A stretch of 64,000 nucleotides of DNA from Desulfobacterales bacterium (GTDB lineage: Bacteria > Desulfobacterota > Desulfobacteria > Desulfobacterales > UBA5852), in assembly GCA_963674755.2 (NCBI GenBank), contig CAXXVS010000002.1, positions 1,440,001 to 1,504,000 on the forward strand. Direction: 5' to 3'. Below the pieces are notes generated by a model that did no database searches, had not been told where the DNA came from, and saw nothing but the letters and a program-made list of their open reading frames with translations. The translations under genes and the position numbers were made by a program. Positions 18,467 to 39,262 of the stretch are shown here, piece by piece. Numbering within the stretch: position 1 is the first letter of the stretch; the number at the start of each line of letters is the position of its first letter.

Positions 18467-18600
18467 TAGAAGTTGACCTCAAAATGAGGATTTTCGTCCG
18501 AGATCAAGGCGAGGCCGGGGACATGAGCCGAGGGCCCAACGCCGAGACTTGTCCGCCTTTGGCGGATCGGGCGAAAAGACTTTTTTGAGATCGGCTTCTA
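18467..18600. repeat. Hairpin element family 1 copy
   Basis: Terminal repeats tagaagttgacctcaaaa / ttttgagatcggcttcta; near-identical segment to the 1667-1903 copy in the opposite orientation. Confidence 0.85.
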
Positions 18601-20652: not shown

Positions 20653-20853
20653 CCTTCCTCCTGTTCTTGCTCAGGTATGCTGAACAAATCGCAAGCGCCT
20701 GTCATCGATAAGGGTATGGTTTACTGGATTGGTTTCCATATTTCAACCTTGCGCGACGCCTCCAATGCCGCTATGGCTGAACCAGCCCCATCGTATCCTC
20801 TCCCGGAAACAGGAATATCCCTTTCGCCACCCAACACAAGGAGCATTAGACCC

Positions 20854-21414
20854 ATGAAGCCCATCGGACCCGTCAACGCCCTCTACCCCATGCCCACCAC
20901 GCTGGTGGGCGCGACCGTGAGCGGCAAACCCAATTTCTTGGCCGTGGCCCACGTGGGAATTCTAAACCACGGCACACCGCAATATCTATCCATTGGTCTT
21001 GCTAAAATGCATTTTAGCAATGCCGGTATCCATGAAAACCGAACCTTCAGTATCTGCCTCCCCTCGGAGGACCTTATGGTGGAAACCGATTTCTGCGGCA
21101 TCATGACCGGCAAGAAAACGGACAAGGCCGCCTTGTTCGATCTGTTCTACGGTGAGCTCAAAACCGCGCCCATGATCCGCCAGTGCCCTGTCAACATGGA
21201 GCTGAAACTCCACGACATCCTGGACTTTGCCACTCACGACATTTTTATCGGCGAGCTGATCCAAACCCACGCGGCCGACAGCGTGCTGACGGCGGGCAAA
21301 ATCGACATCGCCAAACTACGTCCCCTGCTCTTCGACATGGCCAGCAGACAGTACTGGCGGCTGGGACCGCCGGTGGGCAAGTGCTGGAATGAGGGCAAAA
21401 AGTTGAAGAAATGA
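20854..21414 (+). CDS. Flavin reductase / flavoredoxin family protein
   Basis: LYPMPTTLVGA..GKPNF, DFCG..GKKTDK, APMIRQCPVNME, HDIFIGE; aaggag RBS. Confidence 0.88.
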   Translation: MKPIGPVNALYPMPTTLVGATVSGKPNFLAVAHVGILNHGTPQYLSIGLAKMHFSNAGIHENRTFSICLPSEDLMVETDFCGIMTGKKTDKAALFDLFYGELKTAPMIRQCPVNMELKLHDILDFATHDIFIGELIQTHAADSVLTAGKIDIAKLRPLLFDMASRQYWRLGPPVGKCWNEGKKLKK

Positions 21415-21537
21415 TCTGCCGCCGCGGTACGTCTTCACACCGGCGGAATAGAACCGGCTTGCCCAAATGCCGGAATCGTTGCAGAATGGATTTGGAAGGA
21501 TCGAATGTCATCGGTAAGCGGCATCGGAGGACTGGGC

Positions 21538-22710
21538 GTGAAAACCAACAATCACATCTATGAACACCTGCGGCGGCACCTGGACCGCCAGGCCATAGGC
21601 TTTCCGGCGGCCCGTAATGGTGCCGCGCTGCGCGTGCTAAAACATATCTTCACGCCGGATGAGGCCCGGATCGCCGCCGGCCTGAGCGACCGCCACGAGC
21701 CACTGGACATCCTCTATGGGCGCCTGGGCCACCTTGTCGCATCGCCCGATGAACTGGCGCAGGTGCTCGAGCATATCTTGAAGAAAGGCGGCATCGAGGT
21801 CAAGGTGGAAAACGGCCGGCGCCTTTACGCCAACACCCCCCTCCTCGTGGGGATGTACGAACTGCAAATCGGGCGCCTCACACCGGAATTTCTTAGTGAC
21901 TTCCAAGAATACACTTCCAGCCCGCACTTCGGGCTGGAATTTCTGGGCACCGCCCTGCCCCAAATGCGCACGATCCCGGTGGAACGCAGCCTTAACCCCC
22001 ACCACGGGGTTTCCTCCTTCGATGAAGTGGCCGCCTTGCTCGCGAAGGCCCCCGGACCCTTCGTCGTCCTGGAATGCATTTGCCGCCTGAAGAAGCGCTT
22101 GGAGGGGCAGGCCTGCCGGGTTACGGACCGCCGGGAAACCTGTTTGGGATTCGGCAGCATTGCCCAGACGGTCCTTGAGGGCGGCAATGGACGGGCCATC
22201 GACCGCCACGAAGCCCTGACGACCCTTCGGGCCAATCAAAAGGACGGCCTGGTGCTGCAATCTTCCAACACCGAGGTGAGCGCCTTCATCTGCTCGTGCT
22301 GCGGATGCTGCTGCGGCATGCTGCAGCTGCACCGCAGCCTGCCACGGCCGGTCGATTTCTGGTCTTCCAATTTCCTCGCCGCGGTGGATCCGTCCCTCTG
22401 CAACGGCTGCGGCATCTGCCAACGCCGCTGCCAGGTCGGCGCCGTAAGCGTAACCCCGGCCAAAGCTCCGGCCCGGGTGGACGCTACCCGCTGTCTGGGG
22501 TGCGGTCAATGCGTCGAAGCCTGCCCACAGCACGCCATACTACTTCACAAGAAAACCCGCGAAACCGTGCCACCCTCCACCCGCGAAGATCTTCATGCGC
22601 TATTGAAGGCCAACCGACGAGGCCCCTTGGGCAAGGCCGCGCTGGCCGGCAAGCTGGCCCTCGACATGCTGCGCACCGGCAACATCAGCATCCTTCGAAA
22701 AGAATCATAG
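21538..22710 (+). CDS. Multi-Cys 4Fe-4S binding protein
   Basis: CICR..C, ICSCCGCCCG, two CxxCxxCxxxC ferredoxin motifs; GTG start after ggagg. Confidence 0.87.
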   Translation: MKTNNHIYEHLRRHLDRQAIGFPAARNGAALRVLKHIFTPDEARIAAGLSDRHEPLDILYGRLGHLVASPDELAQVLEHILKKGGIEVKVENGRRLYANTPLLVGMYELQIGRLTPEFLSDFQEYTSSPHFGLEFLGTALPQMRTIPVERSLNPHHGVSSFDEVAALLAKAPGPFVVLECICRLKKRLEGQACRVTDRRETCLGFGSIAQTVLEGGNGRAIDRHEALTTLRANQKDGLVLQSSNTEVSAFICSCCGCCCGMLQLHRSLPRPVDFWSSNFLAAVDPSLCNGCGICQRRCQVGAVSVTPAKAPARVDATRCLGCGQCVEACPQHAILLHKKTRETVPPSTREDLHALLKANRRGPLGKAALAGKLALDMLRTGNISILRKES

Positions 22711-22794: not shown

Positions 22795-23958
22795 TCAAAA
22801 CGAGGCTGACGGCTTGAGCTTCCGCAGGCGCCGCCCCGTCTCCGCGAGAATGGCTTCCGTGCGGGCAAAATGCAGGCGGATCAAGTGGTGGACCGGCTCG
22901 TGAAAAAAACTCGACCCCGGCACGGCGGCCACCCCGATCTCCCTAGCCATCCAACGGCAGAATTCCTGATCGTCCCGCACCCCGAAGGCACGGCAGTCCA
23001 CCATCACGTAATAAGCGCCCTGAGGTGTCGTGTAGGTCAGGCCGGCCTCGTCCAGGTAGCCCAGAAACAAATCCCGCTTGCGGGTGTAGTCCTCGCGCAG
23101 CCGGTCATAGTAGGACAGGGGCAGTTCCAGGGCCTGCACGGCCGCCTCCTGCAATGGGGCCGCAGCGCCCACCGTGAGGAAGTCGTGCACCTTGCGCACC
23201 CCCGCCATGATCGCCTCGGGTCCAATCACATAGCCCAACCGCCACCCGGTCATATTGTAGGTTTTGGAAAGGGAGCTGCACGAAATGGTGCGCGCGAACA
23301 TGCCCGGCAGGGATGCCATGTAGCAATGGCGATGGGGCGGGTAGACGATGTGCTCGTAGACCTCGTCGGTGATCACGAACGTATCGTGGGCCTGGGCCAG
23401 ATCCGCGATGAATTCGAGCTCCGCCCGGCTGAAGACTTTACCGGAAGGGTTGGACGGGTTGCAGAGGACCAATGCTTTGGGGTCCTGCCGGAAGGCCTCC
23501 CGCAGCGTTTCCTCGTCGAAGGAATAGTCCGGTGGATGCAGCGGCACGAAGATCGGCCGCGCTCCGCTCAGAATAGCGTCCGCGCCGTAGTTCTCGTAAA
23601 AGGGCGAGAAGACGATCACCTTGTCGCCCGGGTTGCAGGCCGTCATCATGGCACTCATCATGGCCTCGGTGCTGCCGCAGGTGACCACCACGTGGGCATC
23701 GGGATCGAGATCGAGTCCCATCCAGTGGCGCTGCTTGGCCGCCAGGGCGGCCCGGAAACGCGGCGCGCCCCAGGTGACGGCATACTGATGAGGGCCTTCA
23801 GCCATGACCGTTGCCCCGGCCGCCAGCACCTCCGGCGGCGGATCGGCGTCCGGAAAACCCTGGGAAAGATTGATGGCGCCGTACCGATTGGCCACCCGGG
23901 TCATTTCCCGGATGACGGATTCGGTGAAATGGGCGAGCCGGTCGGCGGTCTGGGGCAT
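22795..23958 (-). CDS. Class I/II PLP-dependent aminotransferase
   Basis: INLSQGFPD, NPSNPSGKV, TDEVYEH, SLSKTYNMTGWRLG. Confidence 0.93.
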   Translation of the reverse strand: MPQTADRLAHFTESVIREMTRVANRYGAINLSQGFPDADPPPEVLAAGATVMAEGPHQYAVTWGAPRFRAALAAKQRHWMGLDLDPDAHVVVTCGSTEAMMSAMMTACNPGDKVIVFSPFYENYGADAILSGARPIFVPLHPPDYSFDEETLREAFRQDPKALVLCNPSNPSGKVFSRAELEFIADLAQAHDTFVITDEVYEHIVYPPHRHCYMASLPGMFARTISCSSLSKTYNMTGWRLGYVIGPEAIMAGVRKVHDFLTVGAAAPLQEAAVQALELPLSYYDRLREDYTRKRDLFLGYLDEAGLTYTTPQGAYYVMVDCRAFGVRDDQEFCRWMAREIGVAAVPGSSFFHEPVHHLIRLHFARTEAILAETGRRLRKLKPSASF

Positions 23959-23992
23959 GGATTCCTCCGCACATGAAAAATAAACAGCATTT

Positions 23993-24196
23993 ACCATGAA
24001 GAACATGAAGAGGAAATCATAACCTCTAAAGAGGTGAAAGCCCCCAAAAGCTCAAATATCGCCACCCATTAAGAACCCCGCTGTTATTTGTGGAAGGATT
24101 CGAGGTTTAGCTGGAGAAAAGCATTACGGCGGCGATAACCGTGATCGAAACCAAAATGGTTTTTCTCTTCTTCGTGTCCTTCATGATCTTCATGGT
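23993..24196. repeat. Family 3 inverted repeats enclosing an AT-rich insert
   Basis: accatgaag-aacatgaag ... cttcgtgtc-cttcatgat-cttcatggt. Confidence 0.7.
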
Positions 24197-24218
24197 TCAA
24201 TTTTTTTGTCGATCTTTT

Positions 24219-25847
24219 TCAGAAATGGCGATGGACAATCCGGCCGTCGAAAACCGTCATATCCACCGTGACGTCGGGCAGCCAGGGCGTGGGATCGCCC
24301 AGGATATTGGCGCTCAAGACCGCCAGGTCGGCCCGTTTGCCCGGAGCCACCGTCCCCACATCAGGGATACCGTGAACCGCGGCCGGGGTGGTGGTGTAGG
24401 CGGCCAGGGCTTCCTGCATCGTCACCCGGGAGGCCGGATGCCAGCCCGCCTCGGGTGTACCGTCCGTGCGGCGGCGGGTGACGGCGGCGTGCATGCCCAG
24501 CAGCGGGGCCGGATCGCATACCGGGCAGTCGGAGCTGAACATGACCGGCGCCCCGCAGTCCATCAGCCGGCGAAAATCGTAAGCCCAGCGACCCTTTTCC
24601 CCCACGGCGGCGTCAATCAGGTTCATGTCCAGGAGCAGGTTGGCCGGTGTCAGGCACAGGGCCAGCGGCAGCCGCCCCAGCCGCTCGGCGTCCTCGGGGC
24701 GGATCATTTGCACGTGCTCGATGCGGTGGGGGACCGCAGGCCGCAAGGCCCCGCTACGCCGGCGGTTCTCCTCCACCCCCTCGAAAAGGGCGATCAATTC
24801 CCGGTTGGCCCGGTCGCCCACGGCATGGATCATCACCGCCAGTCCGGCACGGTCCGCCCGCAAAACGGATTGGGCCAGCTCCGCCATATCCACCAGGGGC
24901 ATGCCGCACCCGGCATCCCGGAAAGGATCCACCATCCAGGCGGTGCGGGCCCCCATGCCGCCGTCGGAGAAATATTTAACGTGGCCGATCCGCAGGCGGT
25001 CGTTGCCGAATCCGGTGCGCAGGCCCAGGTCGATGATCTCGTCCAGGCGGTGCCCCGGCAGGGTCACCCAGGCACGCAGGTCAAGCCGGTCTTCCCGATC
25101 CAGGATCTGGAAGGCCTGCAAGGCCCGGGCGCCGTCCTCGTCGGCCATCAGGCGCACGTCGTGGATCCCGGTTACCCCCCGGCGGTGGAGCGCCCGGGCG
25201 GCTTCGGCATAGGCGGTCCGCACATCGGCGTCCGTGGGCGGTGCCATGGCCTTGCGCACCAGGTTCACGGCCAGTTCCCGCAGGATGCCGGTGGGGCGGC
25301 CGGTGGCGTCCCGTTCGATACGCCCCTCGGGGGGATCCGGGGTGGCTTCACCGATACCGGCCAACGACAGAGCCGCCGAGTTGGCCACGGCCAGATGCAA
25401 GTCGCAGCGCCACAGCAGCACAGGGTGGTCGGGGGCAACCCGGTCCAAAGCATCGCGGTCGGGCTGGCGGGGCACGGTCCAATCCGTCTCGTTCCAGCCC
25501 TGCCCCATGATCCACTGCCCGGGCGGGCGCTGGGCAGCGGCCTGCTGCACCAGTTTCAGCAGATCTTCCAGGCCGGTCAGCCTGTCGAGGGGCAAATCCT
25601 GACGCTTGAGGGACCACTCGTAAAAATGGATATGGGTGTCGATGAAGCCCGGCACCACCAGGCGGCCGCCGAGATCGATCTTCTCCGTGTCCCGGTCGGC
25701 CAGATTCAGGATGGCTTCATTGCCGCCCACCGCCAATATGCGGCCCCGGCCGACAGCCAGGGCCTGGTCGGAAGCCTTCCGCAAAGCGGGGCCGGCGACA
25801 ATGCCGTTGAACAGGATAATTTCAGGTGCGCTGTAGTCAGCCGTCAC
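24219..25847 (-). CDS. Amidohydrolase family 3 (YtcJ-like)
   Basis: PGFIDTHIH, KYFSDG, IHAVGDRAN, HRIEHVQ, FSSDCP, GKRADLAVL. Confidence 0.92.
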   Translation of the reverse strand: MTADYSAPEIILFNGIVAGPALRKASDQALAVGRGRILAVGGNEAILNLADRDTEKIDLGGRLVVPGFIDTHIHFYEWSLKRQDLPLDRLTGLEDLLKLVQQAAAQRPPGQWIMGQGWNETDWTVPRQPDRDALDRVAPDHPVLLWRCDLHLAVANSAALSLAGIGEATPDPPEGRIERDATGRPTGILRELAVNLVRKAMAPPTDADVRTAYAEAARALHRRGVTGIHDVRLMADEDGARALQAFQILDREDRLDLRAWVTLPGHRLDEIIDLGLRTGFGNDRLRIGHVKYFSDGGMGARTAWMVDPFRDAGCGMPLVDMAELAQSVLRADRAGLAVMIHAVGDRANRELIALFEGVEENRRRSGALRPAVPHRIEHVQMIRPEDAERLGRLPLALCLTPANLLLDMNLIDAAVGEKGRWAYDFRRLMDCGAPVMFSSDCPVCDPAPLLGMHAAVTRRRTDGTPEAGWHPASRVTMQEALAAYTTTPAAVHGIPDVGTVAPGKRADLAVLSANILGDPTPWLPDVTVDMTVFDGRIVHRHF

Positions 25848-26881
25848 ATCAGGAATCCTTTGGGAAAGGGGTCGCGGGCATCCAGGACGAACTGGTGGTA
25901 CCCGGTTGTCTGGGCGGTGCCCCGGATCTGCCCCACGATGCCCTTGAAAGGGCCGATGGGCAGGCTTCGGACGATCCGGCCTTCGAACACCGTTCCGAGC
26001 GGTCCGGCATTACGGTAGGCCTCACCGGGCTTGAGTTTTCCTTTGTGGTGGAGCAGGGTCATCTTGGCGGTCGTGCCGGTCCCGCAGGGGGAACGGTCCA
26101 TATGGGATTCGCCGTAGATCACGATTCCCCGGCCGGTGCCGGTTTGGGGGTCCTCGTCATAAAACTCGGTCACGTCCACGGTGTTCACCTCGGGCCGTTC
26201 CGGGTGGTGGACCTTGAAGGCCTGGTTGGCGGCATCGATCACTGCCATGCCCAAGGAAACGAAGCGCGGCTTATTGTCCGGGTGCAGGTCCAAACCAATG
26301 GCCCGGGCCGATACCATGGCGAAAAAGCCGCCCACGCAGACCAGATCGACGGGAATTTTGCCATATCCCTCCACCGTCAGCTCTCGGCCGGTATCGAAGA
26401 CAAAGGAGGGCACCATGTCAATCGCCACGGAGGCGACCCGCCCGTCACGGACACGGGTATGGGCGTCCATGGGGCCGGAGGGGGTGTCCACCGTGATCAC
26501 CTGGTCGCCCTCCGCCACGTTCAACGCGCCGGCTTCCACCAGAGAGGCCACAGCCCCGATGGTGGCGTGGCCGCACAGAAAGGGATAGCGCCGGGCATCC
26601 ATGTAAAAAAGACCGAACTGCCCCCGGGAGCTGACCGGTTCGGTTACCACGGCGGCCATGATGCCCCGGTGGCCCCGGGGCTCACGGGTCAGCAGCATGC
26701 GGACATGGTCGAAACGCGCTTCGAAATCGTCGCGCTTGGCCTTGATGGTGTCGCCCGTCAGCAGCCCCGCACCGCCGATGAGCAGGCGGGTGGGTTCGCC
26801 CTGGGTATGGGAATCGATGGTTACGATACGATCCGGATAGCGGCCTTCAAAACCGCCTCGGATCCGATCCAGATTGAGCAT
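25844..26881 (-). CDS. Proline racemase / hydroxyproline epimerase family protein
   Basis: DSHTQGEPTR, EPRGH, LCGH and DRSPCGTGT (both catalytic Cys present). Confidence 0.92.
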   Translation of the reverse strand: MLNLDRIRGGFEGRYPDRIVTIDSHTQGEPTRLLIGGAGLLTGDTIKAKRDDFEARFDHVRMLLTREPRGHRGIMAAVVTEPVSSRGQFGLFYMDARRYPFLCGHATIGAVASLVEAGALNVAEGDQVITVDTPSGPMDAHTRVRDGRVASVAIDMVPSFVFDTGRELTVEGYGKIPVDLVCVGGFFAMVSARAIGLDLHPDNKPRFVSLGMAVIDAANQAFKVHHPERPEVNTVDVTEFYDEDPQTGTGRGIVIYGESHMDRSPCGTGTTAKMTLLHHKGKLKPGEAYRNAGPLGTVFEGRIVRSLPIGPFKGIVGQIRGTAQTTGYHQFVLDARDPFPKGFLM

Positions 26882-26941
26882 GCTGCAAGGCCTCCTGTAA
26901 ATTTTTTAAAATGGCGGCCGCAATGCCTTGGGGCCAAAACA

Positions 26942-26975
26942 AAACCTGAAAACGACGGGGTCGGTTTTCAGGTTT
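26942..26975 (-). terminator. Terminator-like hairpin after the ABC ATPase gene
   Basis: aaacctgaaaac / gttttcaggttt inverted repeat with T-rich tails. Confidence 0.6.
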
Positions 26976-27014
26976 CCTTTTACACCATAGGGCGCCAACG
27001 CGATGGGCGCAAGC

Positions 27015-28115
27015 TTATTCCAGCGGAATGAGATGGCAGTGATGAGGGGCCACCTGCACACTGACCGACTCGCCGATATTGTAAATACGCGTGCGCATCA
27101 TGCTGATGACGTGAATCTCGCGCCCTCCCCCCAGTTCGATAAAGTAGCTTACCTCACCCCCCATGTAGCTGCGGTCCTTGATGCGGCCCTCGAAATGGTT
27201 CAACCCTTCGGTGGGTTTAAAGTCTTCCAAGGGAAAGGCATCGAAACGCTGGGCACGGACGATCATCTCCACAGCATCGCCTTTGGCAAAGTCCCCCTTT
27301 TTTTCGGCAAAGAGGACGTCGCCGGTTTCGATGCGCACGTCCAGATGGTCATCGCCCACATCCACCACTTCTCCCTTGATAAAGTTGGAATGGCCCAGGA
27401 AGTCGGCTACGAAATGGTTTTTAGGTTCGTTGTAGACCGCCTCGGGGGGGCCTTCCTGCTGTTTACGGCCGTTTTTCATGACCAGGATCTTGTCCGACAT
27501 GCTCAGGGCTTCGCGCTGGTCGTGGGTCACGAAGATCGTGGTGACGCCGATCATCTGCTGGAGATTGTCCACCTCGCGGCGCATCTCTTCCCGCAGGTTT
27601 TCGTCCAGGGCGGACAAAGGTTCGTCCATCAGGAGCACATCCGGCTCGATCACGATGGCCCGCGCCATGGCGATGCGCTGCTGCTGTCCGCCCGAAAGCT
27701 GGCTGGGCATGCGGTTTTCCACTCCGGGCAGACGCACCATCTCCAAGGCCCGGGTCACTTTGTCTTTAACCTCGCCCTTGGGGACGTCCCGGTACTTCAA
27801 ACCGAAAGCCACGTTGTCAAAAATGGTCTTGTGGGGGAACAGGGCATAGTTCTGAAAGATCATGCCCAGGTTGCGTTTGTGGATGGGCGTATCGTTGATC
27901 CGGACCCCTTTGATGAAGATGTCGCCTTCGGTGGGTTCCTCCAGACCGGCCACCATGCGCAGCAAGGTGGTCTTGCCGCATCCGGAAGGCCCCAGCAGGG
28001 TCACCAGGCTGCCCTCCTCGATATCGAAGTTCATCTTCTCCACGGCCGTAACACTGCCGAACCGCTTCATGATCCCCTTGAACTGCACCATCGGCTGTTT
28101 CTTGCCGCTCGCCAC
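27015..28115 (-). CDS. ABC transporter ATP-binding protein (PotA-like)
   Basis: GPSGCGKTT, FQNYALFPH, LSGGQQQR, DEPLSALD, C-terminal TOBE-like region. Confidence 0.93.
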   Translation of the reverse strand: MASGKKQPMVQFKGIMKRFGSVTAVEKMNFDIEEGSLVTLLGPSGCGKTTLLRMVAGLEEPTEGDIFIKGVRINDTPIHKRNLGMIFQNYALFPHKTIFDNVAFGLKYRDVPKGEVKDKVTRALEMVRLPGVENRMPSQLSGGQQQRIAMARAIVIEPDVLLMDEPLSALDENLREEMRREVDNLQQMIGVTTIFVTHDQREALSMSDKILVMKNGRKQQEGPPEAVYNEPKNHFVADFLGHSNFIKGEVVDVGDDHLDVRIETGDVLFAEKKGDFAKGDAVEMIVRAQRFDAFPLEDFKPTEGLNHFEGRIKDRSYMGGEVSYFIELGGGREIHVISMMRTRIYNIGESVSVQVAPHHCHLIPLE

Positions 28116-28147
28116 GATATCCTAACTCCCTTATGCGAATTGTAGGA

Positions 28148-28188
28148 TGCCGGAGTTCAGCAATCCGTACGGAAGCTGAACTCCGGCA
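28148..28188. terminator. Strong stem-loop between binding-protein and ATPase genes
   Basis: Perfect 14-bp stem tgccggagttcagc / gctgaactccggca; may stabilise mRNA or attenuate transcription. Confidence 0.6.
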
Positions 28189-28229
28189 ATGCTAAAATGT
28201 CTTCATCACCAAGCGTGAAAAATGCCACG

Positions 28230-28372
28230 ATGATGGTTTATAAGCGGTGGATTGCGGTTCGGGCCAAGGCCGCAGTGATGTTGGAACCGCAGACGTAGCA
28301 GCGCTACGTCGAGGATTCCAACATCGCGAGAACACCGGCCCGGGCCGCAAGACGCCGTTTAGAAACCATCAT
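28230..28372. repeat. Hairpin element family 1, full-length copy
   Basis: atgatggttt / aaaccatcat ends with nested stems; minus strand carries GTCTT, GGTGTT, AATCCT, TGCGGTT, GCCTT and AATCC motifs also seen at 61824-61969. Confidence 0.85.
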
Positions 28373-29535
28373 TAGCTGCCAGCCTTGATCCTATCCCACA
28401 TCTCCGTCCACTCCACCTGGTGGGCATTCCAGTAGGCCGGATCGGCGAAGAGATACCCTGCCAGTTTGCCGGTGGGATCGAACGAGGGCATCTTCTGGAT
28501 CTTTTCAGGCATCTTCACTTTGGTCGGATCCAGGCTGGGCGGATAATTCTGCGCTTCGGAGACGGCGATGGCGCAGTCGGGGGCCAGCATGAAATTGAGC
28601 AGTTGCTCGGCAACGGGCATATCGGAGCCTTTCAGCACGAAGAGATACTCCATCCAGGAATAGGTCCCCTTGGGCGAAAGATACCCGATGGGATGGCCTT
28701 CCTGCTGCAAAGCCGCCACGCGCCCGGACCAGGCCACGGTGGCGTAGATTTCTTCGTTGGCCAGCAGGCTCATCAGTTCGGCCCCGGAGGCCCAGTACTT
28801 TTTCATCAAGCCGCGTTGTTCGCGCAAAGCGGCCCAGATGGCTTTGAGGTCGGTCATGTTGTTGGGGCTCTGTCCGGTGTACAGGGCCGCGTACCACATA
28901 TTGGTGCGGAAATCGCCGCCCCAGCTGCCCAGCTTACCCTTCAGCTCTTTGTCCCACAGCAACGCAGCGCCTAGCTTTTCGGCCTTCTCTTTGCTGACAT
29001 GCTTGGTGTTGTAGGCAATGCCGGTCTGCCCCAGGTCATAAGGCACCGCCGAGAGGGTTCCCTTGGTGATGGCCCGCAGGGGTTTGATCATGGCCGGCAT
29101 GACGTTCTTCAAGTTGGGGATCTTGGCTTCGTCCAGCACGGAAGCAAATCCCAGTTCCGCGTAGCGGGCATAGTCGAACACCGCACTCAAATGGGCGATG
29201 TTGAACTCGCCGCCGGGCGGATAGGAGGCCTTGACCCGGGTCAGGAAGGAGTTCATGTCACCGAATTCACCGTCGATGACTTTGATTCCGGTGGCCTTGG
29301 TGAAAGGCTCGAAGGCATACTTGCGAAAGGCCTCTGATACGACCCCGCCCCACCCGTCGAAACGGATGGACTTGGCCGCCCAGGCATCCTTCACGGCGCC
29401 GGCGAAGGGTGAACCCACCAGGCCGAGGGAAGCACCGGCCAACCCAAGGTATTTGAGAAAACGGCGCCGGCTGATCATGCCATTGCGATACGCCTCATAT
29501 ACCCGATCCAGTTTGTCTTTCGTTACGATTGCCAT
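28372..29535 (-). CDS. ABC transporter substrate-binding protein (PotD-like) with Tat signal
   Basis: SRRRFLKYLG twin-arginine motif, GWGG, FEPFTKATGIKV, KIPNLKN, AWSGR. Confidence 0.9.
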   Translation of the reverse strand: MAIVTKDKLDRVYEAYRNGMISRRRFLKYLGLAGASLGLVGSPFAGAVKDAWAAKSIRFDGWGGVVSEAFRKYAFEPFTKATGIKVIDGEFGDMNSFLTRVKASYPPGGEFNIAHLSAVFDYARYAELGFASVLDEAKIPNLKNVMPAMIKPLRAITKGTLSAVPYDLGQTGIAYNTKHVSKEKAEKLGAALLWDKELKGKLGSWGGDFRTNMWYAALYTGQSPNNMTDLKAIWAALREQRGLMKKYWASGAELMSLLANEEIYATVAWSGRVAALQQEGHPIGYLSPKGTYSWMEYLFVLKGSDMPVAEQLLNFMLAPDCAIAVSEAQNYPPSLDPTKVKMPEKIQKMPSFDPTGKLAGYLFADPAYWNAHQVEWTEMWDRIKAGS

Positions 29536-29567
29536 GAGGGTGCTCCTTTCGGCAGATGGTTGAAATG

Positions 29568-30365
29568 TTATGGCTTTATCTTGGAAAATTTGCGCGACAG
29601 ATAGCCGGCCAGCAAAGGGGTCGTCACGGTCAGTACGATCATCACCGCTCCCAGGGCATTGATTTCCGGACTGATGGAATTGCGCAGCATGCTGAAAATC
29701 TTGACCGGAACGGTCTGGTTCTGGGCCGTGGCCCAGAAAAGCGTGGCCGTGATATCATCGAATGAAATCGTAAAGGAAAACAAAGCACCCGCTAAAATGG
29801 CCGGCAGCAGCAGCGGGAAAGTGATTTCCTTAAAGGTCTGAAACGGATTGGCCCCCAGCGATTTGGCCGCCTCTTCGTATTCCTTTTTGATCCCCACCAG
29901 CCGGGCCTGGACGATCAAAAGCACATAGGGCAGGGTCAGGACCACGTGCCCGATCAGCAGCAGCACGAAACTCTTGGGCTGCTGCAGCCAGCGTAGAAAA
30001 AGGAGCAGGGCTACGCCCAGGACCACCTCCGGTATCATGATGGGCGACAGTAGAAGGGTATTGATGGTGTTCTTGCCCGGAAACTCGAAGCGGATAAAGG
30101 CCAGGGCGGCCATGATGCCGATGCCGGTGGTAATGACGGCGGTCAACGATCCCAGGATGAGCGAATTCTGAAAAGCGTCGATGATGGAGGCGTTCTGGGC
30201 CAGCCGGATGAACCAGCGCAGACTGAAGCCTTCCATGGGGAAAATGCCGAACTGCTTCGGATTGAAGGCCAGCACGATCACCACCACGATCGGGGCGAAC
30301 ATGAAGACATAAACCAGAAAGGTGTACAGGCGTATCAGCGTCCATCCTATTGAAAACGACCGCAT
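29568..30365 (-). CDS. ABC transporter permease (PotC-like)
   Basis: GFSLRWF, EEAAKSLGA, FTISFDD, ISPEINA. Confidence 0.92.
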   Translation of the reverse strand: MRSFSIGWTLIRLYTFLVYVFMFAPIVVVIVLAFNPKQFGIFPMEGFSLRWFIRLAQNASIIDAFQNSLILGSLTAVITTGIGIMAALAFIRFEFPGKNTINTLLLSPIMIPEVVLGVALLLFLRWLQQPKSFVLLLIGHVVLTLPYVLLIVQARLVGIKKEYEEAAKSLGANPFQTFKEITFPLLLPAILAGALFSFTISFDDITATLFWATAQNQTVPVKIFSMLRNSISPEINALGAVMIVLTVTTPLLAGYLSRKFSKIKP

Positions 30366-30368
30366 GGC

Positions 30369-31235
30369 TCAATTCCCCTGGAAGCTTTTGAAGATCTGGT
30401 TGATGCCCAAGTAGCGGTTATAGGTCCAGACGATGACAAACAGCAGGGAGAGCAGAATCACACTGATGGCCGAACCGAAGGGCCAGTCCAGGGTGCCGAT
30501 CACCCGCTTGAAGATCAGATTGGCGATCATTTCGTTGCCCGGCCCGCCCAGGATCATGGGGGGCAGATAGGTGCCGGCCGTGAGCACGAAGACCAGCAGG
30601 CAGCCGGCGCTGACCCCCGGCAGGCTCAGGGGCAGGGTCACTTCGCGAAAGGCCTGCCACTCGGTGCAGCCCATACAGCGGGCGGCTTCCAGAAGGCTCT
30701 TGTCGATACCTTCCAGACTGACGTAGATGTTGAGCACCATGAAGGGCAGCAGGTACATGATCAGCCCCATGAGGACCGTGAATTCGTTGTAGAGCATTGA
30801 AATGGGCGTATCGATCAGGCCGATTTTGATCAGGAAGTGATTGATCAGACCGCTGTCCCCCATGATGTTGATCCAGCTCATGGTACGAATGATGAAACTG
30901 ACCCAGAAGGGCAGCATGATGAGCAGAAGATAAACCTGCCGGTAGCGGGAGCTGCTGCGGTAAAAGAAGTAGGCCGGGATGTAGCCCATGACGAGGCACA
31001 GGAAGACGGTCTCAAACGCGATGCGGATGGTGCGGATCAGAATACCGGGATAGAAGAAATCCGCGAAGAATTTGGCGTAATTGCCGAACTGGAAGGCCGG
31101 AATGTCCGCCCCGCTGGGGGCCCGCAGCCAGAAGCTGTAGACGATGACGAAACACACCGGTATCACCAGCAGCAGAAAAACAGCGCTCATGGACGGCGCC
31201 AAAAGCGCCCATGGTTTCCAGCCGTCCGATTTCAT
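30369..31235 (-). CDS. ABC transporter permease (PotB-like)
   Basis: LPFWVSFIIR, LLEAARCMGC, LPLSLPG, DWPFGSA; alternative start at 31244. Confidence 0.9.
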   Translation of the reverse strand: MKSDGWKPWALLAPSMSAVFLLLVIPVCFVIVYSFWLRAPSGADIPAFQFGNYAKFFADFFYPGILIRTIRIAFETVFLCLVMGYIPAYFFYRSSSRYRQVYLLLIMLPFWVSFIIRTMSWINIMGDSGLINHFLIKIGLIDTPISMLYNEFTVLMGLIMYLLPFMVLNIYVSLEGIDKSLLEAARCMGCTEWQAFREVTLPLSLPGVSAGCLLVFVLTAGTYLPPMILGGPGNEMIANLIFKRVIGTLDWPFGSAISVILLSLLFVIVWTYNRYLGINQIFKSFQGN

Positions 31236-31463
31236 GGGAGCCATCCCTGGTTGTATAATGGCGATATATAGTGGGTTATGAAAATGCTGCTCTCCCCTTT
31301 TTCGAATGGGCCCCGCGCGGTCACAATGACTTCCCATCCCATAGGCGCCGGAGTAGGCCAACGACTTGTCTCCGGTGGGTTAGGGCTGCGCTTCTAAGGG
31401 TTATCAACCTCCATAAAAACGTTCACAGCAACCGGCATCAGGACCGCCTGATGGGCCAGCGGT

Positions 31464-32252
31464 CTAACGGGTGTTTTGCTCCGGGGGCAAAAGCGCCGAC
31501 AGCGTGCGGGCCGTATCCCTGATCATGTCGGCATAACGGGTCATGATCTCCGGGGCGCTCTGCTGCAAAACGGAAAAATCAAAGGAAACCGCCCCTACGC
31601 CTCTGCCGCTCACGGAATCGCGCAGGGCCGCGCCAATGGCCAGAAGGCCGGGCAGCAATTCTTCCACGCACATGGAAAACTGGCGATCCCGCGTCAGCCG
31701 CAATTCGGCATGCAATCGCTCCCGGTCCGTAATGGTTTGGGCCGTACGCGCCACGAGCGGCATGGATGCAAGCTTTTCCGTTAGCTGCTCTTCGCTGAGG
31801 CTGGCCAGATAGGCCTTGCCCAGGGCCGTATTGTGCAGGCAGTTGCGGGCCACATCCGGCAGGCGGTAGGTCAGCGTCTCCTCCGCCTCACAATGGTAGA
31901 TACGCACCAGGGCATCGTTCACCACGAACGCCAGATCGATGCTGATGTTATTTTCACGGTGAATCCGGTCCACGACCTCCCTGATCATCTCCAGATGATC
32001 GGTGGCCCGCATCAGATTCGTGCCCAGCACGATGCTTAAGAGAGACGGCCGGATCTCCTTGGTTTTGCCGTTCTTCTCGAGATAACCCAGTTCCACCAGG
32101 GTGTTGATGTAGCGATAGGTGGACGTCATGTTCAGCCCCAGGGTTTTGGCGATCGCACTCTGGGTCAACACGGGCGTCTCGCGGTTGAAGAGGGCCAGGA
32201 TGCTCAGACCTTTCTCCAGGGACTTTGAAAAATAGAATTTTCCTTTTGACAT
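31464..32252 (-). CDS. IclR-family transcriptional regulator
   Basis: SLEKGLSIL N-terminal HTH, TYRYINTL..LGYL, LHNTALGKAYLA, TAQTITD. Confidence 0.93.
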   Translation of the reverse strand: MSKGKFYFSKSLEKGLSILALFNRETPVLTQSAIAKTLGLNMTSTYRYINTLVELGYLEKNGKTKEIRPSLLSIVLGTNLMRATDHLEMIREVVDRIHRENNISIDLAFVVNDALVRIYHCEAEETLTYRLPDVARNCLHNTALGKAYLASLSEEQLTEKLASMPLVARTAQTITDRERLHAELRLTRDRQFSMCVEELLPGLLAIGAALRDSVSGRGVGAVSFDFSVLQQSAPEIMTRYADMIRDTARTLSALLPPEQNTR

Positions 32253-32278
32253 TCAGATTGGGGGTGATTTATTAGGGC

Positions 32279-32309
32279 ACTATAATAGTCATCTGATTAC
32301 TATTATAGT
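32279..32309. promoter_or_regulatory. Palindromic operator candidate in the divergent IclR / radical SAM promoter
   Basis: actataatagt-catctgatt-actattatagt: perfect 11-bp inverted repeat in an AT-rich spacer. Confidence 0.65.
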
Positions 32310-32382
32310 TAAATTGTCAGATGCCGATACGGATGTCAATTATTAATTTTCATTCAGCAGGCCATAGGGTGCCCAAAGGGGT

Positions 32383-34851
32383 GTGCCAATGCTTCAAGAT
32401 GAAGCCATCGTTGGGGTTGCGTTCAATCATTCGGATGAAACCAATCAGGTCCCGCTCAATGCTCTGGTGGCGGCCCTCACCGGCTTTCTGGATCAGATGG
32501 GCGTCCAATCCTTTGTGGGAGAAGGGGTTGCGGACATTATCCGGACGGGTGACGGGCCCACCAAACTGGAACGCCTGCTAAAGACCTGCGGCTATCCCGG
32601 AAACCCGGAGGGCTTTTTCCAGGCGCTGCTGCCGCAACTCGGGACAGCGAATGGCGCGGCCCCCATCGCCGTCAACGGCATCGAACTGCCCTATTTGATG
32701 ATGATGGCCCTGATGGAAGTTGTCCTGCCCGGCAACCAGTTCATCTCCGTCAAATCCACGACGCAGTTGGAAAAACTGGCCAATATCACCATCCCCGAAA
32801 CAGACCGGGAGGCCATGCAGGCGGTCCTCGACACCTATCCGGTGCGGCTCTCCATGCACACCATTCGTCAGATGCGCCTCTCCCCCCACGTGGCGTACCA
32901 ATATCTCCCCTTCGTCCAGGAGCTGGATACCGTCGGGCACACCAACACCTGGATCGGCCAGTTTCACCAGGGGCTGCTGGAGCAGATGTACCAAAATCGC
33001 GTCATTTTCCTTTTGAACATGAGCTGTCCGGTCTACTGCCGCTTCTGTTTCCGCAAACACAAGGATTCCCGCAACGAAACCAACCCTACCGTGGAGGATG
33101 TCAAAAAGGCCGTCGCCCATGTGGCGAATTCCCCCGCCGTCAAGGAAATCGTCATGACCGGAGGGGATCCTTTCATGAACCGGGCCAATATGGCCGCGGC
33201 TATCGACGGTTTGATGGACATCGCGCATGTGCAATCCCTGCGCCTGGCCACCCGCTCCATCGCCTACTACCCCCATATGTTCCTGTCCGAGGACGGCCGG
33301 CTGCTCACCTATCTCAAACGCAAGAACCTGGAACTCCAGGAGCGGGGCAAACGCCTGGAAGTGGCCACCCATTTCATCCATCCCGATGAAATTTCGCCCC
33401 AGAGCCTGATGATCATCGCCGACCTGGTGAAAAACGGGATCGCGGTCTATGTCCAAACGCCCCTCCTGGACAAGTGCAACGATGAGGGCCCGGAGCTGGT
33501 GCGTCTCTTCAGCCTGCTGCGCGGGGCCGGGGCCGAACTCCATTACATCTATATCCCCTGCAGCCCCATCCACGGCAACAGTGTCTACTGGTCGCCGATT
33601 GCCAAGGGGCTGGCGGTGGGCAGCTACCTGCGGGCCCACCTCTCCGACCGGGTGATCCCGCGCATCTGCACGGCCACGCCCATCGGCAAAATGGACTGGA
33701 ACACCAGCGGCTGGGCCGTGGAACCCGTGGCGGAAAACGACAACTTCATGTGGATCCGCAGTCCTTACACACCGGACTATTTCAAACAATTCGCCCCCCT
33801 GGCCAACCGGCTCGACAACATCCGGGTCAACCAGGAAGGCACCATCGACATCCAGTATATGGCCCAGATCGGCGATCGATCCCTCTTTCTGGGTGCCCGT
33901 CCCCCCAGGGGCGACCGCGGGACAGCGCCCCCGCCGGAAAGCACGGAGGCGGTGCTGCCGCTGGTGTTGAAATCAGAGGGCCTCGCGCCCTCCCTGGTGG
34001 ATACAGGGTCATCCACCCTTTCGCGCGTTCATGAAACCCGGGTCGAACTGGCGGCTGAATGCACGGAAGCCGATATAGACTATATCTGCCACGATGAGCG
34101 GATCACCGACGTGGTGGTGATCGCGGAGCAAGACGCCACCGCATCCCTTTGTGCCATCGCTAAGCTGATCAGGGCCCTGGAAGACATCCCCCATGTCAAC
34201 GCCGTCCGGCTGCGCAGCCTGGCTTTCAATTACGGACCCGAACGCTACACCCCGCTGGTCATCGACCAACTGGACCGCTGGAATCGACTGACCGTGGTCA
34301 ATCCGCTGCGCCTGGAAATCGAGACCCAGTTCCTGACGGCCGACGAATTTCGCCCGGCGCACGCGCGTTTGGCTCGCCAGCTCAACAACCGGGGCATTAC
34401 CGTCTACAACAACACCCCCCTGCTGGGCCGCGTCAACGACACGCCGGAGGCCATTCACGCTTTGGCCTATGGCTGCCGCCAGGCCGCCATCGAATTTCAC
34501 CACCTCTATGTGGCCGGCCTGCCCGTGCAAAAGGCGTGGAACGCAGCCAACCCCGTGGCGCTGTACGATGTGGTGGACATCGCCACCAAGGTCCGGCGGG
34601 AGGGCAGCGGCCGCGAAATCCCCCGCTATATCATCCGCACGCTCCTGGGCGAGGTGGACTTCGGGCTGTCTTCGGCGATCATCGGGGAGGGGAACGACCT
34701 GCAGGTCAAACTGCTGCCTTACACGCTGGCCTACTTCAAAGCGTTGTCACCTGATTTCAGCTGGCCCGCAGGGGTCCGGGAAGATGAAGACGGCCGACCC
34801 ATCGCGGCGGTCCCCGGCCTGTTGAAGACCACCGCCTTTGCTTTGTCCTGA
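32383..34851 (+). CDS. Tandem-domain KamA-like (lysine 2,3-aminomutase family) radical SAM protein
   Basis: CPVYCRFC, TGGDP, THFIHPDE, QTPLL..CND, IGK; second degenerate repeat (NNTPLLGRVND, SGREIPRY); alternative ATG start at 32389. Confidence 0.88.
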   Translation: MPMLQDEAIVGVAFNHSDETNQVPLNALVAALTGFLDQMGVQSFVGEGVADIIRTGDGPTKLERLLKTCGYPGNPEGFFQALLPQLGTANGAAPIAVNGIELPYLMMMALMEVVLPGNQFISVKSTTQLEKLANITIPETDREAMQAVLDTYPVRLSMHTIRQMRLSPHVAYQYLPFVQELDTVGHTNTWIGQFHQGLLEQMYQNRVIFLLNMSCPVYCRFCFRKHKDSRNETNPTVEDVKKAVAHVANSPAVKEIVMTGGDPFMNRANMAAAIDGLMDIAHVQSLRLATRSIAYYPHMFLSEDGRLLTYLKRKNLELQERGKRLEVATHFIHPDEISPQSLMIIADLVKNGIAVYVQTPLLDKCNDEGPELVRLFSLLRGAGAELHYIYIPCSPIHGNSVYWSPIAKGLAVGSYLRAHLSDRVIPRICTATPIGKMDWNTSGWAVEPVAENDNFMWIRSPYTPDYFKQFAPLANRLDNIRVNQEGTIDIQYMAQIGDRSLFLGARPPRGDRGTAPPPESTEAVLPLVLKSEGLAPSLVDTGSSTLSRVHETRVELAAECTEADIDYICHDERITDVVVIAEQDATASLCAIAKLIRALEDIPHVNAVRLRSLAFNYGPERYTPLVIDQLDRWNRLTVVNPLRLEIETQFLTADEFRPAHARLARQLNNRGITVYNNTPLLGRVNDTPEAIHALAYGCRQAAIEFHHLYVAGLPVQKAWNAANPVALYDVVDIATKVRREGSGREIPRYIIRTLLGEVDFGLSSAIIGEGNDLQVKLLPYTLAYFKALSPDFSWPAGVREDEDGRPIAAVPGLLKTTAFALS

Positions 34852-34864
34852 ACCGGAGGCCGCC

Positions 34865-35530
34865 GTGCACTACCCTTTTTTACTCTACGACCGTAAAATC
34901 CATCACCGTCCCGTCTTCACCGGACTTGAAGGCGCCCCCTACCTCGCCGACCTTTCCCTCCGGAGCGCCCTGCTGAAGGACCGGGCGCCGCGGGACCAGG
35001 GCGCCCTGCAGCAAATTTTAGAAGAAAAGATGGGCCGCGATTATCACTGGGGCCTGGCACCCTACCTCGAGCAGCGCGACACGCTGCTGCGCGACTGCCC
35101 CCAGATGGTGGCTGAAAAACGCTTCATCCATTTGGGCCTGGATGTCATCGTTCCCCTGGCAACCCCCTTGCATGCCCCACTGGATGCGGTGGTGGCCGAA
35201 AGCGGCTATGAGGAAGGCGAGGGCAACTACGGGGGCTATGTCCTGTTGAAGCACGAAGACCCCGGCTTCGAGACCTTCTACAGCTTCTATGGCCACCTGT
35301 GCCGTGATCGCCTGCCGGCCGCCGGGCAAACTTTCCGGGCCGGCACACCCTTTGCCGAAATCGGCGACTTTCACGAAAACGGCCATTGGTTCCACCATAC
35401 CCACATCCAGGTCATTACCCAAAAGGGGCTGGAGGCGGGCTACACGACCAAAGGCTATTGCAGCGCCCCGGACATGGCGGTCATGAATGACCTCTGCCCT
35501 TCCCCCATCCCCTTATTTAAAACCGGATAG
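34865..35530 (+). CDS. M23-family metallopeptidase-like protein without signal peptide
   Basis: HLGLD (HxxxD), GNYGG, YGHL, ENGHWFHHTHIQ (HxH); GTG start after ggagg. Confidence 0.85.
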   Translation: MHYPFLLYDRKIHHRPVFTGLEGAPYLADLSLRSALLKDRAPRDQGALQQILEEKMGRDYHWGLAPYLEQRDTLLRDCPQMVAEKRFIHLGLDVIVPLATPLHAPLDAVVAESGYEEGEGNYGGYVLLKHEDPGFETFYSFYGHLCRDRLPAAGQTFRAGTPFAEIGDFHENGHWFHHTHIQVITQKGLEAGYTTKGYCSAPDMAVMNDLCPSPIPLFKTG

Positions 35531-35954
35531 CGGCCTTTGCCGGACACGGCCCGTTCCTGCCCCTTGGTGGACAAAAGTTCCCCGGCAGCGCTCCATTGGT
35601 CCCGCCCATCATCGATCGGACTGTCGGCAAACGGGGCGACCCTGCGGGATGCAAGGGCCGCCCGTCGATACGGATAAGGAGATCAACGTGTTCGGGTGGG
35701 GACGGCTTTAACCACTTCCAGAGAATTATGTCGTTGCATTCCTTCACCATCCTGTGCTTAACCATTCAGACATAAGGCCCCCGGTTCCGGGCGGCGCTGC
35801 GCAAAAACCCGGTGCTTGCGATAGACCCTGTTCAAACCGCGATCGTGCAAAGCAGGCCTTGAAAGCATCGCTTTTGCGCTAAATTCTGAAGATATCCCCA
35901 AAATCAGTGCGGGCCGGGCGCATCATTCCACAACCGGCGGCCAGGAGACCCTCC

Positions 35955-36452
35955 ATGCGGTTTAGCTTGATACCATCCCATCGGAAGACGGCGATCGCCA
36001 TCGTCGTCGGTTTCATCATGATTGCAGCGCAGGGCACCATAGCCGCCGACGCTCAAATCCCCAAGGGCCAGACGCTTTATGTCCCGGTCTACTCCCATAT
36101 CTACAGCGGCGACCGGGAACGGCCGGTCTATCTGGCCGTCACCCTCAGCATTCGCAATACCGACCCGACCCATGCCATCCAGGTGACGACCGTGGATTAC
36201 TACGACTCCGAAGGACGGCGGCTCCAGCATTATCTGAAAGCACCTGTCGCCCTGCCCCCCCTGGCAACGGTGCGCTACGTGGTCAAGGAATCGGACAAAG
36301 CGGGCGGATCGGGGGCCAATTTCCTCGTGCGCTGGCAATCCGCGGAACCGGCCAACCCGCCCCTGGTCGAAAGTATCATGATCAGCACGGCCTCTCAGCT
36401 GGGCATCTCCTTTACCTCCCGGGGCGTACCGATCGTCGAAACAGCCCCGTAA
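35955..36452 (+). CDS. DUF3124-like exported protein
   Basis: GQTLYVPVYSHIY, TLSIRNTD, YYDSEG, GGSGANFLVRW, ISFTSRG; aggag RBS. Confidence 0.82.
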   Translation: MRFSLIPSHRKTAIAIVVGFIMIAAQGTIAADAQIPKGQTLYVPVYSHIYSGDRERPVYLAVTLSIRNTDPTHAIQVTTVDYYDSEGRRLQHYLKAPVALPPLATVRYVVKESDKAGGSGANFLVRWQSAEPANPPLVESIMISTASQLGISFTSRGVPIVETAP

Positions 36453-36472
36453 TCCAAAAGGAAAGCAGACCG

Positions 36473-38113: not shown

Positions 38114-38164
38114 TACCAGCTTCCCGGCGGCCCCTTGCCCCTGCCCGATGAAGGACTTCTTGCC

Positions 38165-39199: not shown

Positions 39200-39262
39200 A
39201 GCATAAAACCGGCCGTCTTCGGCCCGGATCGTCAGCCACACGAATCGCATTGATCGATAACG

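Follow-up and report, generated by a model that had tools for sequence, protein, structure and literature searches.

A conserved gene cluster of sulfate-reducing bacteria that may take up and salvage N-acetyl-β-lysine

Aerobic catabolism of β-lysine in Pseudomonas B4 proceeds by acetylation, transamination, β-keto-acid cleavage and deacetylation. N-acetyl-β-lysine is the osmolyte of the ablAB operon; its synthesis by AblA and AblB is described in the accessible part of PMC12776343, and the accessible part of PMC1224877 reports little turnover of the compound in its producers. Here we describe a locus in a 64,000-nucleotide stretch of a Desulfobacterales genome (the window; assembly GCA_963674755.2, contig CAXXVS010000002.1, positions 1,440,001 to 1,504,000 of the forward strand) that holds ten genes in two divergent arms. 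One arm encodes an IclR-family regulator, an ATP-binding cassette (ABC) importer, a proline-racemase-family protein, an amidohydrolase and a class I aminotransferase, and the other a tandem KamA-like radical S-adenosylmethionine (SAM) protein, hereafter the tandem protein, and an M23-family zinc hydrolase (Table 1). In sulfate-reducing bacteria the ten genes make up a conserved cluster, which is neither the ablAB operon nor the B4 route but links both. On balance we favour the reading that the cluster would import N-acetyl-β-lysine, move its amino group from the β to the α position and then deacylate the product by means of the M23 protein or the amidohydrolase.

A scan of GTDB genomes yielded 224 stretches encoding a relative of the tandem protein, and the best 80 were kept; by title these are mostly Desulfobacterales and Desulfobulbales, so that counts lean to close kin. 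Linkage was counted in 47 loci with at least 9.5 kb of upstream sequence, with the importer sought within 10 kb, and in 69 full-length loci with downstream sequence. For genome-level co-occurrence, 301 genomes were drawn evenly across the order, many of them incomplete, and because kin are not independent the odds ratios of co-occurrence overstate the association. Loci are labelled L and genomes G, G000 being the genome of the window. The draw contains the tandem protein in 61 genomes, the binding protein of the importer in 62 and AblB in 45; the tandem protein occurs in 41 of the 155 genera sampled, and the cluster is present in cultured Desulfosarcina and Desulfopila strains.

The two arms belong together. 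An importer lies near the tandem gene in all 47 loci (PotD-type in 42, a polar-amino-acid importer in the other five), accompanied by IclR in 43, the racemase in 41, the amidohydrolase in 39 and AblB in 18; IclR, importer, racemase and amidohydrolase occur together in 35. The M23 gene follows the mutase gene in 61 of the 69 downstream loci. An earlier note on this DNA had treated the arms as one system, and their co-occurrence in other genomes bears this out, as does an operator-like palindrome shared between them. The divergent intergenic region of 136 bp holds two 11-bp palindromes 20 bp apart, and a box matching with no more than one mismatch occurs in 66 of 66 such regions (exact in 64; 0.54 and 0.01, respectively, in a Markov-simulated control). 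Only three exact boxes exist in the 6.7-Mb genome, two of them in this region. We predict that the boxes are the operator of IclR. An arrangement of two unrelated units (importer, racemase and amidohydrolase; mutase and M23) that stand back to back and share only ancestry is very improbable: the partners stay together through several rearrangements (L075–L077, L080, L081, L257 and L258 retain them in reshuffled orders), the box between the arms is conserved, and tandem loci without this importer carry another one under the same IclR, although this type of importer was not found in 19 of 61 tandem genomes, the tandem protein was not found in 20 of 62 importer genomes, and in G206 the two lie about 0.76 Mb apart.

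The closest solved relative of the tandem protein is lysine 2,3-aminomutase (LAM) of Clostridium subterminale (2A5H), which is both its only PDB sequence match and the best Foldseek match (E 1.3e-18) of an AlphaFold single-chain model of high confidence (predicted local distance difference test, pLDDT, 89.5; predicted template modelling score 0.91). The earlier note gave the protein 822 residues; the likely start gives 820, and the tandem KamA-like architecture holds in that there are two KamA-type stretches, of which only the first carries cofactor ligands. All 98 of the full-length homologues keep these ligands, namely C213, C217 and C220 (CxxxCxxC), R222 and K434, and K434 aligns with the GGGK lysine of AblA. 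With LAM and AblA the first module shares the fold, the cysteine motif, the carboxylate arginine, the pyridoxal 5'-phosphate (PLP) lysine and several PLP-contact residues; in LAM we take R134 to bind the substrate carboxylate and K337 to be the PLP lysine. The tandem protein differs from both in a PLP loop two residues shorter, an extra N-terminal domain, a fused second module without cofactors and a Ser/Ala pair in place of two aspartates. In LAM these aspartates, D293 and D330, presumably bind the ε-ammonium group of the substrate; a literature search on LAM residue numbers found only irrelevant matches. By alignment to 2A5H, the D293 column is S392 (Ser in 96 of 98 homologues, never Asp) and the D330 column is A429 (Ala in 98 of 98), and as a control the acidic pair is present in 56 of 60 single-module KamA-family proteins from the loci examined. 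Because the pair is missing, plain lysine is an unlikely substrate, and from these residues we infer that the first module acts as an aminomutase on an amino acid whose distal end is neutral. The cysteine triad is absent from the second module and its PLP-lysine position holds Glu or Asp, yet many of its residues are invariant.

Profile scores of the protein also fall below the cut-offs for named enzymes (TIGR03820, 151.3 against a cut-off of 525.4; TIGR00238, 152.9 against 199.2; TIGR04368, 135 against 650; TIGR04468, 147 against 600; TIGR03821, 130 against 369). The glutamate and arginine 2,3-aminomutases and EpmB, which the last three models describe, belong to the same KamA family with other specificity or stereochemistry, and all are single-module. 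The tandem protein appears to work like KamA yet departs from that family in lacking the acidic pair, in scoring below the cut-offs and in its architecture. Other KamA-like genes were seen along the way. A single-module KamA at L086:1495-2568 and L091 (G000:C3 near 1767700) carries Glu in the D293 column, lacks D330 and has its PLP loop shortened as in the tandem protein (ATNIGK); genes for an MlrC-like hydrolase and an ABC importer of the dipeptide type precede it, and it is probably another substrate variant. The KamA at L085:1165-2604 and L090 keeps D293 and D330, scores 498 bits (under the AblA cut-off) and has a D-Ala-D-Ala-ligase-like gene behind it; some kb further on lies a deacetylase-like gene that shares 42% identity with the B4-type one, and this arrangement could make a β-lysyl amide. 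Single-module KamA genes with Gln at the D293 column and a shortened loop lie close to the tandem gene in L135 and L149, and at L138:7064-15313 a KamA gene and the tandem gene form a single series with ornithine aminotransferase-like and MttB-like genes.

A first clue to the substrate comes from AblB, the N-acetyltransferase of β-lysine, which was found by clustering the neighbours of the tandem loci and scores above the TIGR03827 cut-off. Of the 61 tandem genomes 36 hold it, against 9 of the 240 others, including only 4 of the 220 with neither tandem protein nor importer. The ablB gene stands directly before the tandem gene in L077, L132, L133 and L137; ablA, ablB and the tandem gene are consecutive in L146; and a full ablAB operon lies right behind M23 in L021 and L048. 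As in the ablAB operon, AblB is tied here to a 2,3-aminomutase-type enzyme, whereas the present system brings an importer, IclR and hydrolases, and in the window genome ablB is distant and ablA is not next to it. The only ablB of that genome (C2:2232136; L084/L089) has no KamA neighbour and precedes a polar-amino-acid ABC importer, and no AblA over the cut-off was found in the genome. The binding protein of that remote importer keeps the motif TEGAYPPF, and the same arrangement and AblB clade are seen in three Desulfosarcina genomes.

The same data could be read in the opposite direction, with AblB acetylating imported L-lysine and the tandem protein, in place of AblA, converting N-ε-acetyl-L-lysine to the osmolyte by the same chemistry. 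The ablB-tandem operons do mimic ablA-ablB, and among the genomes of 50 of the 80 tandem loci, of which 32 have AblB and 9 have AblA over the cut-off, no AblA above that cut-off was found in 23 of the 32 that bear AblB. In a tree of 42 AblB sequences, 24 of 25 that are cluster-linked fall on one side of a branch with support 95/87, apart from ablA-linked AblB, and the LAM equilibrium favours the β isomer. Against such a synthetic role, AblB was not found in 25 of the 61 tandem genomes, 9 of the 50 already hold both ablA and ablB, a coupled hydrolase would be odd for synthesis, and under the same regulator the tandem protein is replaced by a plainly degradative module, described next. We regard synthesis as unlikely.

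Where the importer occurs without the tandem gene, it often stands beside a class III aminotransferase, a 3-oxoacid coenzyme A (CoA)-transferase A/B and an ArgE/DapE deacylase (L212, L250, L252, L255 and L263–L265). A thiolase is added in two such loci, an IclR orthologue is present in four, and in three the same box precedes IclR (exact in L263 and L277, one mismatch in L212). An orthologue of the class III aminotransferase (65–72% identity) is found in 13 of the 20 importer genomes without the tandem protein, compared with 2 of the 61 with it. One of the latter is the window genome, which holds an aminotransferase/CoA-transferase A/B/ArgE unit at C3:587091-591095 (63–71% identical to the alternative module) with no importer adjoining. 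A transamination that yields a 3-oxoacid, followed by CoA transfer, thiolysis and deacylation, would imply that the substrate of this module needs to be a 3-amino acid with an amide. Four plasmid relatives of the aminotransferase from Alphaproteobacteria (49–51% identity) were opened. Two lie beside a β-keto-acid cleavage enzyme (BKACE), a GNAT protein and a deacetylase, the third beside a cleavage enzyme, a deacetylase, an amidohydrolase and a racemase, and the fourth beside a CoA-transferase, ArgE, a thiolase, an amidohydrolase and a racemase. The alternative module has the B4 enzyme set or a CoA-transferase/thiolase equivalent, and the B4 route and the present cluster have an acetyl-first logic in common. 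The window differs from the B4 route in that it would remove the β-amine by a predicted radical migration, keeping the C6 skeleton, and in that its hosts are anaerobic; the class III transaminase, the cleavage step and the deacetylase of the B4 route are not in the window. Together, the AblB association and the interchangeable module are two independent clues that suggest N-acetyl-β-lysine.

The importer shares its subunit set and fold family with the polyamine importers PotABCD and PotFGHI and with a putative rideopine importer of Ti plasmids, and differs from them in a WSGR motif of the binding protein (PotD has WNGS), in Tat (twin-arginine translocation) export and in its regulator and enzymes. 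The binding protein scores well below the PotD and PotF cut-offs (70 against 582; 50 against 636), has only weak PDB matches, and gave an AlphaFold model that is unusable (pLDDT 47.7). Its Tat export, claimed by the earlier note, has the support of TIGR01409 (24.3 bits against 16.7) and not of Pfam TAT_signal (18.9 against a cut-off of 22.7). In the alternative polar-amino-acid binding protein, Ser replaces a Glu of the Thermus 3vv5 protein in 7 of 7 sequences, as it does in the binding proteins of the alphaproteobacterial modules, whereas the binding protein beside the remote ablB of the window genome keeps the Glu; the Ser in the alternative binding protein is in keeping with the reading we favour.

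The nearest plasmid relatives of the window's binding protein (46–47% identity) are a Pseudohalocynthiibacter protein and Ti-plasmid proteins. In the parts of PMC8554961 and PMC10410297 accessible to us, a Ti-plasmid region is tentatively assigned to rideopine catabolism; the relatives were matched to this region through the identity of the plasmids and the genes present. At L206 and L208 the Ti-plasmid relatives lie beside IclR, a class III aminotransferase and a putrescine importer. Such relatives in rideopine (RIC) regions fit a substrate that is some other β-amino acid or an opine-like compound, such as β-glutamine, a guanidino compound (β-arginine) or a rideopine-like N-alkyl-D-amino acid. 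The neutral mutase pocket would also fit β-glutamine, named as an osmolyte in the accessible part of PMC1224877; the class I enzyme is near glutamine and kynurenine transaminases, an agmatinase-like gene is present in L265, and proline racemases act on secondary amino acids. A substrate of this kind nonetheless leaves the AblB linkage, seen in many independent arrangements, and the ArgE deacylase unexplained; a guanidinium group would be expected to need the acidic residues that are lost in the mutase and the polar binding protein, and the Ti-plasmid IclR is not similar to that of the window. We consider it improbable.

Two hydrolases could carry out the deacylation. The amidohydrolase matches PF07969 with 354.7 bits against a cut-off of 29.7, has 3icj as its best PDB relative and keeps its metal-ligand motifs in 41–42 of 42 homologues. 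The M23 protein matches PF01551 (34.9 bits against 28.7), has no other Pfam domain, and keeps the zinc motifs HxGxD and HxHxQ in 63 of 63 homologues; the earlier note called it a cytoplasmic M23-like protein, and while the family assignment stands, the location is a putative one, suggested by an N-terminus in which no hydrophobic leader is seen by eye. Of 39 genomes with tandem protein and importer (two of the 41, the least complete, were dropped), 29 have M23; of the 20 that hold the importer and not the tandem protein, 1 does. In L060 and L151 the position of M23 is taken by a second YtcJ-like amidohydrolase, an exchange suggesting that M23 cleaves amides, and we predict that M23 is the N-ε-deacylase partner of the mutase. 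Its closest described counterpart is the middle domain of PRK06148, a kinase–M23–class III aminotransferase fusion (E 2e-31; 32% identity to a Sinorhizobium meliloti pSymB protein), and it differs in being stand-alone and paired with a radical SAM enzyme. A dedicated search at E 1e-15 found no longer M23 relatives, although this profile match and another search show the fusion. A fusion-type protein is encoded at L124:9500-11923, where a deacylase role for M23 would free an ε-amine too. A link of the M23 fusion protein with 3-aminobutyrate in Pseudomonas putida found no support.

The racemase has both catalytic cysteines, C103 and C266 (CGH in 45 of 45 homologues; the second Cys in all 40 of the 45 that were shown), and falls below all six NCBIfam cut-offs (PRK13969, 308 against 556). 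Two pocket phenylalanines of proline racemases are Met and Tyr here in alignments to 7pb3 and 1w61, with the first Phe kept in 14 of 45 homologues. Counting two partial matches, 52 of 61 genomes with the importer have the racemase, compared with 1 of 19 that have the tandem protein alone; in five of five genomes whose locus is without it, a search revealed no orthologue elsewhere. It follows the importer and would therefore serve the importer's cargo rather than the mutase, and a role as obligatory mutase partner is ruled out. The class I aminotransferase, with 2o0r and 1u08 as best solved relatives, is present in 19 of the 47 tandem loci, where it lies near the edge of the flank; at an identity of at least 65%, 20 of 39 genomes with the tandem protein have it and so do 10 of 20 that lack the tandem protein, and it is thus optional.

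These patterns raise the question of whether the cargo is a conjugate of β-lysine and a D-amino acid, either a dipeptide or an isopeptide, which the hydrolases would split, after which the racemase would convert the D-amino acid, AblB would acetylate the β-lysine, and the β-amine would be removed by either the mutase or the class III module. A racemase and an amidohydrolase accompany a β-amine module twice with unrelated proteins: in two Rhodobacterales an Alr-like racemase and an M20 amidohydrolase, unrelated to the ProR-like and YtcJ-like pair, go with the aminotransferase module. The racemase is also present in importer genomes with either module, M23 enzymes as a rule cut D-Ala-to-side-chain-amine bonds, and the window genome has an acidic-pair KamA beside a D-Ala-D-Ala-ligase-like gene. 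Yet no such metabolite is known to us, PotD-type proteins usually bind small amines, and genomes with the polar-amino-acid importer run the tandem protein without a racemase. A conjugate cargo is, in our view, doubtful. It has in common with reverse synthesis and with another β-amino acid or opine a lysine-type β-amino acid at the core.

Returning to N-acetyl-β-lysine salvage, we propose the following sequence, in which we infer each substrate and direction from the genes, motifs, linkage and palindrome observed above. The Tat-exported binding protein and ABC importer would take up N-acetyl-β-lysine, and IclR would be released from its two boxes. In the first module a [4Fe-4S]/SAM radical and PLP would move the amine from C3 to C2, giving N-ε-acetyl-α-lysine; this chemistry is read from the conserved ligands and its substrate from context, and the pocket would do without the two aspartates since a neutral amide forms the distal end of the substrate. 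The second module, which is dead, probably replaces the partner subunit that completes the dimer in lysine aminomutase. The M23 hydrolase or the YtcJ-like amidohydrolase would then remove the acyl group, pulling the reversible mutase reaction to lysine and acetate, while AblB, encoded in the cluster of many relatives and elsewhere in the window genome, likely acetylates free β-lysine so that it can enter the route. The racemase and amidohydrolase likely handle a D-α-amino acid arriving through the same importer, with the class I aminotransferase as an optional add-on. Import of an N-acylated amino acid osmolyte, amino migration and hydrolysis had been suggested earlier, and the gene context fits these steps, although not as a single linear pathway, since racemase and aminotransferase do not follow the mutase; the order suggested then, hydrolysis before migration, is probably reversed, as migration most likely runs from β to α and precedes deacylation.

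Several observations weigh against this proposal. AblB was not found in the 25 tandem genomes counted above, and the box (at most one mismatch) was not found in most rearranged loci without IclR. The plasmid relatives of the binding protein lie in putative rideopine catabolic regions. The module swap is not strict, with both modules held by the window genome and one congener. When one of the cleavage enzymes was tested, it scored above the cut-off for NF053538, a model named 3,5-dioxohexanoate:acetyl-CoA acetone transferase, which is no lysine enzyme; BKACE enzymes are described as promiscuous in the accessible part of PMC4922564, and in the accessible part of the literature on BKACE and lysine we found no mention of a β-lysine route. 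One alternative-module locus has an agmatinase-like gene (L265:5001-5996) and two have a creatininase-like gene (L270:3844-4314; L278). The class I aminotransferase was predicted to follow the mutase, which failed. Finally, the racemase accompanies the importer in most genomes, yet a β-amino acid offers it no substrate, so the principal cargo of the importer may be a compound other than acetyl-β-lysine, and the racemase–amidohydrolase pairs hint at a D-amino-acid component that the proposal explains only loosely.

All genes and families listed by the earlier note were recovered at their coordinates with Pfam and NCBIfam, and Table 1 gives the positions with likely starts. No enzyme or transporter subunit reaches a named equivalog cut-off in NCBIfam, the sole match over a cut-off being the TIGR01409 Tat signal, and Atlas searches returned family-level names only. 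The amidohydrolase and racemase genes overlap by 4 bp. Promoter and terminator scans gave no excess over chance (4 against 4.5 expected; 12 against 12.8). The lower GC content noted earlier for the transporter/IclR part is real (56.6% over 27015-32383, against 64.1% and 61.0% in the enzyme arms). It does not stand as a sign of transfer: the genome average is 57.9%, and the GC content of third codon positions is 0.75–0.83 across all ten genes, so that the dip reflects amino-acid composition and a foreign origin of the transporter block is ruled out. Upstream of the cluster, window positions 18598-22710 hold a gene for a 684-aa protein that looks VWA- and OmpA-like by eye, a flavin reductase-like gene and one for a 4Fe-4S protein; downstream, positions 35907-40594 hold genes for a DUF3124 protein, a Kef-type antiporter, a nucleoside hydrolase and a GatZ/KbaZ-like protein, the first two of which are not kept beside the cluster in relatives.

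Table 1 Features of the cluster and their positions in the window
Feature	Position	Strand	Remarks
Class I PLP aminotransferase, DapC/YbdL/kynurenine-aminotransferase-like; optional member	22795..23958	-	PF00155; likely start 23958
YtcJ-like metal-dependent amidohydrolase (Amidohydro_3)	24219..25847	-	PF07969, E 1.7e-105
Proline-racemase-family protein	25844..26881	-	PF05544; C103 and C266; altered pocket
ABC ATPase, PotA-like	27015..28115	-	Pfam/NCBIfam profile matches; 42/47 loci
Tat-exported solute-binding protein, PotD fold family	28372..29535	-	PF13416, TIGR01409
ABC permease, PotC-like	29568..30365	-	Pfam/NCBIfam profile matches
ABC permease, PotB-like, 288 aa from likely ATG at 31235	30369..31235	-	Homologues mostly 288 aa
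IclR-family regulator	31464..32252	-	PF09339 and PF01614; 43/47 loci
Two palindromic 11-bp boxes, ACTAT(A/T)ATAGT; predicted IclR operator	32279..32309		Starts 32279 and 32299; 20-bp period; no strand
Tandem KamA-like radical SAM protein, 820 aa	32389..34851	+	Likely start 32389
Stand-alone M23/LytM-fold zinc hydrolase, 221 aa	34865..35530	+	PF01551; start 34865, 13 bp past the upstream stop

The earlier note knew of no described pathway with this combination. We likewise found none, and the cluster is less isolated than that suggests, as it joins AblB chemistry to the logic of β-lysine breakdown. No uptake or breakdown system for acetyl-β-lysine was found in literature searched by title and start of abstract, a scope that left subscription journals largely outside and did not have the tandem architecture as a search target; searches for hydroxylysine kinase with M23, or for 6-acetamido with β-lysine, found nothing, and one for β-lysine catabolism found only unrelated work. 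The fuller reading, for and against which the evidence seems to us evenly balanced, is an anaerobic salvage of N-ε-acetyl-β-lysine that combines the importer, an N-ε-acetyl-lysine 2,3-aminomutase built as a live/dead pseudo-dimer and a cytoplasmic M23-fold deacylase of small molecules, with the aminotransferase module assigning genes to the Pseudomonas B4 pathway. The cluster occurs in 61 of the 301 sampled genomes, or about one in five Desulfobacterales. If the reading is true, the importer, regulator, operator and enzymes of such a salvage would be named, the few radical SAM/PLP aminomutases would gain a new substrate class, and a stand-alone M23 protein would have its first small-molecule role.

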